Below are positions 10,366-14,232 of a DNA stretch of 56,259 nucleotides, piece by piece; positions within the stretch are counted from its first letter, which is position 1, and each line of letters begins with the position of its first letter. The stretch is taken from positions 1 through 56,259 of the forward strand of contig JBAYVE010000006.1 of the NCBI GenBank assembly GCA_041674765.1, written 5' to 3'. The position numbers and the translations under genes are program-made. The notes under the pieces were generated by a model, which searched no databases, had not been told where the DNA came from, and saw nothing but the letters and a program-made list of their open reading frames with translations. This DNA is from Patescibacteria group bacterium. Lineage in GTDB: Bacteria; Patescibacteriota; UBA1384; XYA2-FULL-43-10; 1-14-0-10-43-13.

Positions 10366-10776
10366 ATGAATAAACAATACTTCGTTTTATCGCATGATAC
10401 GGCACGAAATAACGCTGTTATAGCGTGTAGAAATGCCCCACATGGGTATGTGGTGGAGATAAAAGAGCCGAACAGGACATTAATGCAGAACTCCGCTCAA
10501 TGGCCAATTCTCGGAGAGTTTGCGCAGCAATTAAAGTGGCCGGTAAATGGCGAGATGGTCAATTTAATTGATGAGGAATTCAAGGATATTTTCACGGCAG
10601 CATTTAGAAAAGAAACTTTGCGGCTCGCGGCTGGTGTGGATGGTGGTGTCGTCATGCTAGGTAAAAGGACGAGTAAGTTTGGAAAGAAAGAATTTGGCGA
10701 ATGGCTTGAGTATCTGCACTATTTGGCAGCGAGATATGATGTCAATATCAATCATGAAGCCCGGAGAGCGTATTAA
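10366..10776 (+). CDS. ninB: NinB/Orf-family recombination protein
   Basis: VEIKEPNRTLMQNSAQW, GKRTSKFGKKEFGEWLEYL. Confidence 0.85.
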   Translation: MNKQYFVLSHDTARNNAVIACRNAPHGYVVEIKEPNRTLMQNSAQWPILGEFAQQLKWPVNGEMVNLIDEEFKDIFTAAFRKETLRLAAGVDGGVVMLGKRTSKFGKKEFGEWLEYLHYLAARYDVNINHEARRAY

Positions 10777-10780
10777 ATTG

Positions 10781-11017
10781 ATGGAGATTAATTTAACACT
10801 AGAGAGTATTTTTGGCGCTTTTATGCTCAGCGCTTTTGTGTCATTTTTCCTGACCGGTCAATTGTTGATAAGAGCCATAATCTTTGTGTTCATATGGCAG
10901 ATATTCACTCCGCTCTGCGATGTTTGGTACCTGGATATTTTTATGTGCGCAATGCTGTTCGTGGCCATTGAGTTTGTTTACTTTGAAACTGTCCGCGCAT
11001 GTCGATCACTGCCATAA
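10781..11017 (+). CDS. Small multi-TM membrane protein
   Basis: Hydrophobic 78-aa ORF from ATG 10781. Confidence 0.5.
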   Translation: MEINLTLESIFGAFMLSAFVSFFLTGQLLIRAIIFVFIWQIFTPLCDVWYLDIFMCAMLFVAIEFVYFETVRACRSLP

Positions 11018-11126
11018 AACCAAATCGATTCGTGGAATTCTATGCAACCGATGTAACACCGTTCTTGGCTTGTGCGAAGACGACGATAAGTTGCTTTCGG
11101 CTTTGGTGAGGTATTTGAGGAAATGA
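10998..11126 (+). pseudogene. C-terminal remnant of an endonuclease VII-family nuclease
   Basis: HVDHCHKTKSIRGILCNRCNTVLGLCEDD...YL; N-terminal half with the first CxxC-containing motif absent. Confidence 0.7.
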
Positions 11127-11887
11127 CATGGCTATTCAGCAAAGCAATGATGGAGGATTGCGGGAACTCGCGCTCTTTGCCGGAGCTGGTGGAGGAATAC
11201 TCGGAGGCAAATTGCTCGGATGGAAAACCGTGTGCGCAGTTGAGTGTAATGCCTACGCAGCACAAGTTCTCGCGCAACGGCAGAATGATAGAACCATTGA
11301 ATCTTTCCCGATTTGGTCTGACGTGTGTAGTTTTGACGGAAAGCCGTGGAAAGGAATTGTTGACATCGTTTCTGGAGGCTTCCCGTGCCAAGACATCAGC
11401 TCAGCCGGGAAAGGCGCAGGTATCGACGGGGAGAAATCAGGACTATGGAAACACATGGCGCGCATCATCGATGAAGTTCAGCCTAGATTCGTGTTCGTGG
11501 AGAATTCACCACTCCTTGTTTCCAGAGGACTTGTCAGAATCCTTGGTGACCTTGCCATCATGGGGTTTGATGCGAGATGGGGAATTATTGGAGCGATCGA
11601 CGCCGGATTCCATCACAACAGGAAACGTTTATGGATTGCTGCCAACACCGACAGCAACAGATCACAAAGGATCAGCGCCGAATCAAGTGATAAGGCGAGA
11701 AAATCACAAGCAAAAGAGTCTGACATTGCGCGAGTGGTTAGCAAAATACAGCAAGGCGGAGAAAACTGTATACCCGAATCCTGGATTCTTAGAAGCAGCA
11801 ATGGGATGGCCTCAAGGATGGACAGAACTGTCGCCATTGGAAATGGACAGGTTCCAGCGGTGGCAGCAAGAGCATGGAATATGTTGA
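11123..11887 (+). CDS. Overlapping-frame MTase partner carrying motif IX (true start may be internal)
   Basis: 254 open codons over the MTase gene; LLPTPTATDHKG and NPGFLEAAMGWPQGWT. Confidence 0.7.
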   Translation: MTWLFSKAMMEDCGNSRSLPELVEEYSEANCSDGKPCAQLSVMPTQHKFSRNGRMIEPLNLSRFGLTCVVLTESRGKELLTSFLEASRAKTSAQPGKAQVSTGRNQDYGNTWRASSMKFSLDSCSWRIHHSLFPEDLSESLVTLPSWGLMRDGELLERSTPDSITTGNVYGLLPTPTATDHKGSAPNQVIRRENHKQKSLTLREWLAKYSKAEKTVYPNPGFLEAAMGWPQGWTELSPLEMDRFQRWQQEHGIC

Positions 11888-11904
11888 TGGGGACGGATAA
11901 ATAA
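11128..11904 (+). CDS. C5-cytosine DNA methyltransferase, main polypeptide (motifs I-VIII and X)
   Basis: LFAGAGG, GGFPCQ, VENSP, HNRKRLWI, GNGQVPAVA; no motif IX. Confidence 0.92.
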   Translation: MAIQQSNDGGLRELALFAGAGGGILGGKLLGWKTVCAVECNAYAAQVLAQRQNDRTIESFPIWSDVCSFDGKPWKGIVDIVSGGFPCQDISSAGKGAGIDGEKSGLWKHMARIIDEVQPRFVFVENSPLLVSRGLVRILGDLAIMGFDARWGIIGAIDAGFHHNRKRLWIAANTDSNRSQRISAESSDKARKSQAKESDIARVVSKIQQGGENCIPESWILRSSNGMASRMDRTVAIGNGQVPAVAARAWNMLMGTDK

Positions 11905-12038
11905 ATGAGCAAAATAACCCAAGCGCACGCGGTAAAGAATGCCAAGTTCGCATAATTGGCGTGTGCAATGGAAATAATGAAACTGTTGTATGGGCGCATG
12001 CGAACGGCCTAGCCTCTGGTAGAGGCGTTTGGCTCTGA
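11905..12038 (+). pseudogene. Frameshifted, truncated DUF1364/YbcO-like nuclease
   Basis: Restoring 1 nt after codon 6 gives MSKITQxARGKECQVRIIGVCNGNNETVVWAHANGLASGRG, then TGA. Confidence 0.7.
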
Positions 12039-12058
12039 CAAAAACGTGAATTGGACTT

Positions 12059-12346
12059 ATGAATAAAAAAGAACAACAATTCCATGACAAGCTCCGACAA
12101 ATCGGATGTGTGATATGTCGAGAATTTGAAGATGTCAGAACAGATCCGGAAATACATCACATTTCTCAAGGATCTGGAGAGAGAAGTCATTATATGTGCG
12201 CACCGCTGTGCGTATCTCATCATCGAATCGGAGTAACTTCGCTGCATGGCGCTGGCGTTAAGCGATTCTTGAGTATGCATGGATTGCCAACGGAATTTCA
12301 TTTGTTGGAATTGGTTAATAAATTCAGAGCGGAAGACGGAGTGTAG
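12059..12346 (+). CDS. Ref-like / His-Me finger Zn nuclease
   Basis: GCVICR, EIHHI, APLCVSHHRIG. Confidence 0.75.
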   Translation: MNKKEQQFHDKLRQIGCVICREFEDVRTDPEIHHISQGSGERSHYMCAPLCVSHHRIGVTSLHGAGVKRFLSMHGLPTEFHLLELVNKFRAEDGV

Positions 12347-12535
12347 ATGAAAAACCCAAGCACGCAAGAACTTGATAGAGGTTACTCAGAGTGCCAAGAC
12401 TGCCGCAATGGAATACATCTGCATCAGAGCGGATTTGAGTGTGATACACACATGTGTGCGCAATGCGGATGTCATGTTGTCAATAAAGAAGAGTTTTTTA
12501 AATTCCAGTCAGGAATAGAGGTGCTGTCAAAATGA
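12347..12535 (+). CDS. Small Cys-rich protein
   Basis: CQDC and CAQC pairs; coupled to both neighbours. Confidence 0.6.
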   Translation: MKNPSTQELDRGYSECQDCRNGIHLHQSGFECDTHMCAQCGCHVVNKEEFFKFQSGIEVLSK

Positions 12536-14232
12536 GAACATCAGCAGCGCGCGCACTGGCAGAGCTGGAGGCTACCGGACAAGATCACGAGTGGTATCCC
12601 ACTACTAACGAAATAATCGATGCATTCCATGCTCATGCCAGTTCATTTGAAATGAGCAGCATTCTGGATATTGGCGCCGGGGACGGGAAAGTCCTCAAAC
12701 GTTTCCAAGAGAAGAACAGCAAAATACCGGACTGTTACCGGACAGAGTATTTCGCAATCGAGAAAGCGCGGCCATTGCTGGACAGTTTACCGGTTGATGT
12801 CGGTATCCTCGGCACGGATTTTTGGGAACAATCGCTGCTTGATAAATCGGTTGATTGCATATTTTCGAATCCTCCGTATTCAGAGTTCGTTGATTGGTGC
12901 GTGAAAGTCATTCGAGAAGCAAATTCGAATTACATCTATCTGGTTATCCCGCAGCGATGGAAAGAGCAGAAGAAGATTATCGACGCTCTCGAGATCAGGA
13001 AAGCCGGTTATAAAGTCCTGGGTGAGTACGATTTTCTGAGTTCTGAGGATCGGCAAGCACGCGCAAAGGTAGACTTGGTGTTTATCTGGCTTTGCCATTC
13101 AGAATATAGTTCAAATAGCCACAAATACCATAAAGGGGTCAATGCAAATGTTGATCCATTTGCCCTTTGGGTGAATGAGTTCTTTGAGCTGAGTGATAAA
13201 AAGGATAAGCACGGATTATCTGAGTACGCTCAAGCGCAGGAAGATGCTAAGGCGAGGCAAGCAAATATCAGCAATTCTTTGGTGCCCGGCAGGAGCATGA
13301 TTGAAGTGCTTGATCAACTCTACCGGGAAGAGTTGGATGAGTTAATTAGCAACTATAAGCGCGTTTGCTCGCTGGATGATGCTCTCTTTAAAGAGCTTGA
13401 TATATCGGTCAAATCGGTCGTGTCTTCGATTAAAACCCGGATACATGGCCTGAAAAATGCTTACTGGCAGGAGTTATTCAATAACTATGAGCCGTTGACT
13501 GAACGCCTGACCTCAGCCAGCCGAAGCACATTTATCGAAAGTATCCGCAGGAAAACAAACATAGACTTCACGGCATCCAATGCCTACGCAATTACCGTAT
13601 GGGCGATTAAAAACGCCGATCAATATCTTGATAAGCAGATGATTGAGACATTCGGCAAGATGGTTGATGCTGCCTGTGTGGTCAACTACAAGTCAAATGA
13701 GCGAGTATTTAAGAAAAACTCATTTCGATATTACGCTGACGAAGATAAGCATAGTCACTTCAAACTTGATTACCGGATAGTCGTGGAACGAATGGGTGGT
13801 TTGGTACAAATCGGATCATATAACAGCTATAGCGCTATCGGTGGATTGTGCGAAAACGCAGCAAACTTTATTGACGATTTAATTGTTATCGCAAGAAATC
13901 TTGGTTTTGAATGCGATGATTCAATGAAATCACATGCATTCAAAAGCGGAGGAAAGGAAGAATTTTATTGCACAGACAAGCGCGGAAATGAAAGATTGCT
14001 GATGACTGTAAGGGCGTACATGAACGGCAACCTGCACATTAAATTCGACCAATCATTCATGCTGGCTTTTAACGTCGAAATAGGCCGGCTGCAAGGATGG
14101 ATTCATAACGCGCAGCAAGCAGCCGAGGAAATGGGCGAAAAGGTCGATAGCGTGCAAGAGCATTTCAATTCAGCATATTCATTGGGATCAGATAACAAAG
14201 TTGTTCGTTTATTGATAGGAGTTAATGAATGA
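12532..14232 (+). CDS. Amino (N6-adenine type) DNA methyltransferase with DUF4942-like C-terminal domain
   Basis: WYPT, ILDIGAGDG (motif I), FSNPPY (motif IV), C-terminal YMNGNLHIKF. Confidence 0.85.
   Translation: MRTSAARALAELEATGQDHEWYPTTNEIIDAFHAHASSFEMSSILDIGAGDGKVLKRFQEKNSKIPDCYRTEYFAIEKARPLLDSLPVDVGILGTDFWEQSLLDKSVDCIFSNPPYSEFVDWCVKVIREANSNYIYLVIPQRWKEQKKIIDALEIRKAGYKVLGEYDFLSSEDRQARAKVDLVFIWLCHSEYSSNSHKYHKGVNANVDPFALWVNEFFELSDKKDKHGLSEYAQAQEDAKARQANISNSLVPGRSMIEVLDQLYREELDELISNYKRVCSLDDALFKELDISVKSVVSSIKTRIHGLKNAYWQELFNNYEPLTERLTSASRSTFIESIRRKTNIDFTASNAYAITVWAIKNADQYLDKQMIETFGKMVDAACVVNYKSNERVFKKNSFRYYADEDKHSHFKLDYRIVVERMGGLVQIGSYNSYSAIGGLCENAANFIDDLIVIARNLGFECDDSMKSHAFKSGGKEEFYCTDKRGNERLLMTVRAYMNGNLHIKFDQSFMLAFNVEIGRLQGWIHNAQQAAEEMGEKVDSVQEHFNSAYSLGSDNKVVRLLIGVNE

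Follow-up and report, generated by a model that had tools for sequence, protein, structure and literature searches.

Does a single stretch of phage DNA encode two different proteins that together make up one cytosine-5 (C5) DNA methyltransferase? This question is raised by a methylase gene at positions 11123-11904 of the window, the term used here for the whole stretch of DNA that was analysed, an entire contig of 56,259 nt consisting of phage genes. Two reading frames of the plus strand, A and B, run along this gene. The initial annotation, which was made from the letters of the sequence, had read frame A as a C5 methyltransferase with motifs I, IV, VI, VIII and X and without motif IX, and frame B as its missing motif IX subunit.

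The 56-kb contig encodes homologs of RecE and RecT, an O-like replication initiator, NinB, endonuclease VII, the methylase and a Ref-like nuclease as well as terminase, portal and tail-fibre genes, and the methylase is located in a nin-like early region. No tRNA genes, host flanks or terminal repeat were found on the contig, which belongs to a 1.49-Mb genome bin, and all ORFs checked were phage-like; instead of being an integrated prophage, it may represent a free phage that was placed in this bin. A second methyltransferase-like gene (12532-14232, plus strand) lies 645 nt downstream of the methylase and encodes 566 aa with an MTS small domain, DUF4942 and a weak PHROG match to DNA methyltransferase. 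Elsewhere on the contig (40276-51660, plus strand), a single polyvalent ORF of 3794 aa combines ddrB-ParB, LPD5, LPD1, ART-PolyVal (ADP-ribosyltransferase), LPD23 and LPD38 domains. Giant multi-domain polyvalent proteins are thought to be delivered into the host by phages and conjugative elements.

The two reading frames and their predicted products

Table 1. Features of the methylase locus, in window coordinates; A and B denote the two reading frames and residue numbers refer to their translations.
Feature	Position	Strand	Details
Upstream ORF, recombination endonuclease VII	10884-11126	+	80 aa; Pfam PF02945 1.3e-13; PHROG endonuclease VII
Shine-Dalgarno-like purine runs	11105-11120	+	read from the sequence
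Frame B ORF, proposed beta chain	11123-11887	+	254 aa; ATG at 11123; phase A+1
Upstream copy of apparent 39-nt duplication	11123-11161	+	B sense kept, MTWLFSKAMMEDC
Frame A ORF, proposed alpha chain	11128-11904	+	258 aa; ATG at 11128; large catalytic domain of C5 methyltransferase, linker and motif X
Downstream copy of apparent 39-nt duplication	11162-11200	+	A sense kept: motif I, ELALFAGAGGG
Motif I, LFAGAGGG	11173-11196	+	frame A
Block LSRFGLTCVVLTESRGKELLTSFL, B61-84	11303-11374	+	frame B; A synonymous sites constrained
Motif IV, GGFPCQDIS	11374-11400	+	frame A; catalytic Cys87; residues invariant in alignment A2
Block SCSWRIHHSLFPEDLSESLVTLPSWGLMRDGE, B123-154	11489-11584	+	frame B; A synonymous-site ratio 1.8-1.9; from B143 on, part of the Arturo-aligned stretch B143-198
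Motif VI, ENSP	11500-11511	+	frame A
Motif VIII, HNRKRLWIAA	11614-11643	+	frame A; confidently folded large domain ends here
TRD-like PTPTA module LLPTPTATDHKG	11636-11671	+	frame B
Linker, A173-215	11644-11772	+	frame A; predicted disordered, neutral at amino-acid level, stop-free
Motif IX-like segment NPGFLEAAMGWPQGWT	11777-11824	+	frame B; ends 12 nt before A motif X
Motif X, IGNGQVP	11836-11856	+	frame A; C-terminal helix

Frames A and B are both open across 760 common nucleotides, and the third frame over the gene contains 21 stops. When the A protein was kept and its synonymous codons were redrawn from the codon usage of the window, none of 20,000 trials left the +1 frame open, and the mean number of stops was 10. 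Contigs of three further studies span 11055-12100 with few substitutions and no gaps, and the frame pair is therefore neither an assembly frameshift nor a sequencing artefact. Near-identical contigs show seven substitutions, none of which creates a stop in B and one of which (11315 G>A) creates a stop in A. The contig with this change comes from a wastewater RNA-labelled run; W63 of A is turned into a stop and G65 of B into serine, so that the catalytic frame is knocked out in this strain variant. The gene sequence was present in RNA-labelled runs as contigs only, and a scan for promoters and terminators gave results at chance level.

The hallmarks of C5 methyltransferases, namely motifs I (FxGxG AdoMet loop), IV (PCQ), VI (ENV/ENS) and VIII (RxR), are all present in A. 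Pfam PF00145 (1.2e-30) and TIGR00675 match A only at profile positions 4-195 of 324 and 4-189 of 329, respectively; since these matches cover the first 60% of the profiles, A shows no target recognition domain (TRD) or motif IX. Both elements were absent between motifs VIII and X of frame A by profiles, by the AF2 model and by codon tests. The open frames and the motif content of A were thus correctly described at the outset, as supported by coordinates, motif positions and the partial profile matches. In the AF2 model of A (pTM 0.72), residues 11-178 and 237-258 are confident and most of 179-236 is below pLDDT 50. Best Foldseek matches of this model were M.HaeIII (1dct) and M.HhaI, with 5e-13 to 1e-12 over approximately 170 columns. 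The fold predicted for A is thus that of the M.HhaI/M.HaeIII large domain alone, plus a disordered linker. The model superposes on the large domain of these two monomeric enzymes, in which a single chain also includes the small domain (TRD and motif IX), whereas A of the window is without this domain. With no small domain and a linker between motifs VIII and X that is predicted disordered and is neutral, A alone would have no means of DNA recognition.

The linker DNA (11644-11772) also encodes the variable recognition region of B, in which the copy number of the PTPTA module varies among relatives. The segment NPGFLEAAMGWPQGWT fits E-x2-(L/M)-(Q/G)-G-(F/W)-P, which we take to be the motif IX pattern, and sits just before motif X, like its counterpart in single-frame relatives. 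Searches of B against Pfam, NCBIfam and PDB sequences (profile and C-terminal fragment) returned no match, and the motif IX and TRD labels are therefore based on pattern and position. Structure prediction of B alone gave a pLDDT of 56.5, and Foldseek with this low-confidence model yielded nothing usable. Residues B143-198 align with the second methylase ORF of mycobacteriophage Arturo (BLASTP 3e-08), PHROG 1008, annotated as DNA methyltransferase, matches B74-196 at 1.6e-15, and the N-terminal 125 residues have no known counterpart. The description of B as the motif IX subunit by the initial annotation was therefore apt as far as pattern and position of this segment go and too narrow otherwise, since B carries a TRD-like PTPTA module and N-terminal blocks as well.

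An exhaustive HMMER scan with B returned 5967 representative clusters at E<=1e-3 and 408 at E<=1e-30. All 575 called B homologs in protein databases are "hypothetical" or unnamed, and none has a Pfam domain. The exact B protein of the contig is absent from a collection of 15 billion proteins in which A is present, and PGAP annotates only A in E. coli relatives, as would be expected from the early suspicion that annotation pipelines drop one of the two frames.

Selection in each frame

The closest relatives show 83% DNA identity and 76% protein A identity to the window. In the catalytic part, differences at A codon positions 1/2/3 amount to 0.15/0.08/0.33, the pattern of a coding frame A. Along A173-216 the values are 0.30-0.48/0.16/0.05-0.07, which is the pattern of frame B, and B identity is 76-78% and A identity 48-60%. 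The C-terminal part is A-like again.

Synonymous constraint was assessed in 37 non-redundant relatives by comparing same-codon use in same-amino-acid pairs with resampling from each relative's own codon usage. Internal control stretches served as reference, because the closest methylase relatives, which are Nitrosomonas prophages, share only the methylase gene at the DNA level and hence provide no flanking dS. For A, the observed/expected ratio was 1.4-1.7 opposite B15-90 (1.6-1.7 opposite B61-84 versus about 1.1 in the internal control stretches), 1.1-1.2 opposite B90-119, 1.5-1.9 opposite B110-160 with 1.8-1.9 opposite B120-159, and 1.1-1.2 opposite B150-174. It was 1.7 at the PTPTA module and reached 2.5-2.9 in the motif IX-like segment, where synonymous constraint is stronger than anywhere else in the gene. 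For B, the ratio was 2.0-2.8 where A is catalytic, 0.95-1.04 opposite the A linker and 1.8-2.0 opposite the pre-X helix and motif X of A (B225-249). As stretches near 1 indicate that synonymous sites are saturated, the raised ratios reflect local constraint and not shared ancestry.

Selection acts on both proteins, in complementary segments. Constraint on protein A covers the catalytic part (residues 13-172) and the surroundings of motif X, and the A linker is not under amino-acid-level selection. Constraint on protein B is seen in the blocks 15-90, 110-160 and 170-190, and above all in 205-240 (NPxFxExxMGWPxGWT); amino-acid-level selection acts on most of the B protein, and the stretch overlapping the catalytic domain is no exception. 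The dual coding over about 760 bp that had been suggested initially is borne out by these signatures in both frames, and the suppressed synonymous variation in homologs, named at the time as a sign to look for, occurs in blocks (A ratios of 1.5-2.9). Constrained segments of each frame are found opposite the relaxed ones of the other, so that a putative recognition domain could diversify in B against the free spacer of A.

From the B sequence, approximately 2.5 stops per locus are expected in the A linker, yet it is stop-free; the chance of staying open is 0.125 in the window and around 0.1 per relative. That a neutral linker remains open despite this expectation argues that ribosomes read A through to motif X. 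Some of the similarity between relatives follows from the overlap itself. Part of the conservation of B is an arithmetic shadow of A, in that Gly65 of B follows from Trp63 of A and ASRAKTS in B is the +1 reading of GFPCQDIS in A, and G226-R233 of A is arithmetically forced by MGWPxGWT of B. Whole-segment resampling of B identity, which gave 0.42 for the third frame, 0.43 for B and 0.30 for the null, does not on its own single out B.

Relatives, start codons and an apparent 5' duplication

Full-length tblastn matches to B were detected beneath annotated methylase genes of phages of Salmonella, Acinetobacter, Ralstonia, Pseudomonas, Microcystis and other hosts; in Vibrio phages the match begins only at B residues 19-24. 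S9-5, ABMM1 and Gerry, the three phages inspected, have both frames open, and an annotated "hypothetical protein" of Ralstonia phage Gerry is the B frame. For counts of stops, 80 species-genome and 80 viral-contig loci were fetched by frame A patterns alone, which avoids selection on B, and 156 of them span the gene fully. Stops that precede the start codons or terminate B itself were not counted. Interruption of B in close homologs, which the initial annotation had regarded as speaking against its proposal, was rare at most: B is without internal stop in at least 154 of these 156 loci and A in 152, and the third frame contains 15-16 stops on average. Both frames are thus open end to end in more than 97% of relatives, with hosts ranging over Proteobacteria, Akkermansia, Planctomycetota as well as cyanobacterial and other bins.

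In some relatives the split between the chains is different. The B-type protein continues in frame into motif X in P0162, P0212, P0220, P0181 and L166, an AquI-like arrangement that puts motifs IX and X together on the second chain, unlike the window, where motif X remains on the first chain. In L166 the A frame stops before motif X, and B carries, fused to it, a copy of the pre-X helix and GNGQVP that lies outside the overlap. In the same locus (1438-2718, on the Logan contig carrying P0011) B runs through an insert of about 110 aa before the pre-X helix copy, with an HNH endonuclease ORF (2255-2614) inside the insert in the third frame; a group I intron in L166 was not detected by Rfam. In two further lineages (L090/L094 and L095) a TAA occurs in the A linker with motif X intact downstream, so a continuous alpha chain is not universal. 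These loci may represent a three-piece or AquI-like variant, or early decay. The TAA of L090/L094 is located just after motif VIII, is common to two diverged sequences and derives from B Arg-Lys codons (CGT AAA).

The B ATG lies beside the A start in nearly all loci. Most relatives have the layout NTG-A-ATG, in which the A start is ATG, GTG or TTG and the B ATG follows 4 nt after it, immediately 3' of a TGA in the B frame. In the subfamily of the window, with ATGNCATGG, the B start comes first and the A start 5 nt later. The purine runs upstream of the starts in the window are GGTGAGG (11105-11111), at distances of 11 nt to the B ATG and 16 nt to the A ATG, and GAGG (11117-11120), at distances of 2 nt and 7 nt; paired starts in relatives have a GGAG-type run 5-10 nt upstream. 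The stop TGA of the endonuclease VII ORF (11124-11126) overlaps the B ATG (ATGA), an arrangement that would allow translational coupling. This upstream ORF begins with TTG and matches only positions 26-82 of the 82-position Pfam profile, and a hydrophobic 112-aa ORF (10679-11017) overlaps it in another frame; the start of the endonuclease VII gene may be mis-set or the gene truncated.

The subfamily of the window has about 13 extra codons at its 5' end, which appear to have arisen by tandem duplication. The upstream copy has the consensus M[ST]WLFSxA[LM]M in frame B, and in frame A it reads MAIQQSNDGG, without conservation; eight subfamily loci show an identity of 0.60 for B and 0.21 for A across the first 10 codons. 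The downstream copy carries motif I in A and reads GNSRSLPELVEEY in B. One sense is kept in each of the duplicate copies, which is direct evidence that both senses matter. Six B-type proteins (P0014, P0073, P0103, P0125, P0229 and P0245) contain an insert of about 150 aa that follows the MSWLFSKAL start and precedes the region overlapping motif I, a longer form of the 13-codon extension in the window.

A putative two-chain methyltransferase

The two frames of this gene are open and conserved, and selection at the amino-acid level acts on each of them in its own right. In our reading of the sequence, the locus is probably a dual-coding gene for a two-polypeptide C5 methyltransferase with start codons 5 nt apart; we infer that B is translated, that the two chains assemble and that they act as an enzyme. 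One phage mRNA would be translated from two starts, the B ATG at 11123 and the A ATG at 11128. The alpha chain (frame A) would provide the large domain for AdoMet binding and catalysis (motifs I-VIII), along with a disordered spacer and the helix that bears motif X. The beta chain (frame B) would contribute conserved N-terminal blocks, possibly for binding alpha, and a PTPTA-type recognition module that would form a small DNA-recognising domain together with the motif IX-like segment. Alpha and beta might then assemble into one active cytosine-5 methyltransferase, which would most likely shield phage DNA from host restriction.

M.EcoHK31I, a system reportedly described by Lee, Kam and Shaw in 1995, has a beta chain of approximately 176 aa. 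In the passages that treat it in two publications, this enzyme of E. coli HK31 (YGGCCR) is a two-polypeptide C5 methyltransferase whose alpha chain holds motifs I-VIII as well as X and whose motif IX chain is encoded in another frame of the same DNA (PMC2836561, PMC3404938), and its recall as a precedent in the initial annotation was accurate in this respect. For M.EcoHK31I and M.AquI the need of two chains for one enzyme was proven experimentally, according to the same passages (PMC2836561, PMC3404938). M.AquI (CYCGRG) is a two-subunit C5 methyltransferase as well, and the part of the source that deals with it mentions no frame overlap (PMC3404938). In full-text literature searches, no natural split C5 methyltransferases other than M.EcoHK31I and M.AquI came up.

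The window resembles M.EcoHK31I in having a first chain with motifs I-VIII as well as X and a second chain in an alternative frame, the two systems being compared by description and not by sequence. It differs in several respects. The beta chain of M.EcoHK31I is nested in a longer alpha chain, whereas the overlap in the window is complete, spanning the whole gene with B starting 5 nt before A. The TRD of M.EcoHK31I is assigned to alpha, whereas alpha of the window has a disordered, unconstrained spacer in its place and the recognition part, with the PTPTA modules, lies in B. Unlike the beta chain of M.EcoHK31I, that of the window has 254 aa, with the recognition module and extra N-terminal blocks. 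The division into a large-domain part and a recognition part is shared with M.AquI. A further relative is the gp76/gp75 "DNA methyltransferase" pair of Arturo (NC_042339), with motifs I-VIII in one frame and PTP-type modules, a motif IX-like EWMMGWEEGW and motif X in the second; in contrast to the window, the two frames there overlap by only about 185 nt, the second one is not open further upstream, and it contains motif X. The Arturo pair and the relatives with motif X on the B-type chain speak for a modular split of the enzyme.

Other readings were considered. B might be a real and selected protein without being a methyltransferase subunit, for example a regulator or anti-defence protein overprinted on the methylase, in line with the lack of profile matches to methyltransferase families in Pfam, NCBIfam and PDB and with an N-terminal part of 125 residues that has no known counterpart. 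We regard this as unlikely, given that A itself has no small domain and only a disordered, neutral linker between VIII and X, that B aligns at residues 143-198 with the second methylase ORF of Arturo and at 74-196 with PHROG 1008 (DNA methyltransferase, 1.6e-15), and that the B-type chain runs in frame into motif X in several relatives.

Less likely still, and quite improbable, is a single hybrid chain that starts in A, shifts +1 into B after motif VIII and returns by a -1 shift into A for motif X, the double frameshift that had been mentioned early on as an alternative. Such a chain would fit the A-B-A order of the strongest constraint, the stops in the A linker of two lineages with an intact motif X downstream, and the Arturo-type relatives, in which one +1 shift would restore the canonical motif order. 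It would, however, leave untranslated both the first 170 codons of B, which are stop-free in at least 154 of 156 loci and include a conserved ATG and selected blocks, and the A linker, which is stop-free in 152 of 156 against about 2.5 stops expected per locus. Moreover, motif VIII of A (to 11643) and LLPTPTA of B (from 11636) overlap in nucleotides. GWT of B likewise shares nucleotides with the helix preceding motif X of A, an argument that is weakened because G226-R233 of A is forced by B. Programmed frameshifting is characterised by a slippery site with a stimulator and by frames that are open only where they are used; no slippery heptamer was seen at either junction when the window sequence was read by eye, no Rfam element was found, and both frames stay open over their full length in more than 97% of relatives.

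A frameshifted pseudogene, an assembly error or a chance-open frame, to which the nonsense change in A of the wastewater variant (11315 G>A, W63*) might point, is already refuted by the comparative data, i.e. independent assemblies without indels, no chance-open B in 20,000 recodings and conservation of both frames over 156 loci from many phyla.

Returning to the two-polypeptide methyltransferase, we consider it fairly likely that full-length dual coding (230-300 codons) is a property of thousands of cytosine methyltransferase genes in phages and prophages, with two proteins made from neighbouring start codons rebuilding one enzyme. If so, few same-strand overlaps known in prokaryotic viruses would be longer or more widespread, and this one is missing from Pfam, NCBIfam and standard annotation. 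In the window and in RefSeq E. coli relatives the second protein is without annotation, and elsewhere it is named hypothetical protein. Methylome predictions that treat frame A as a complete enzyme would then be wrong, and M.EcoHK31I would no longer be an isolated oddity but the earliest known representative of a very large class of phage enzymes. The gene would be a natural model of two folded proteins sharing 760 bases; the data show that constraint is split between the two frames and that an apparent duplication has locally released them from the overlap.
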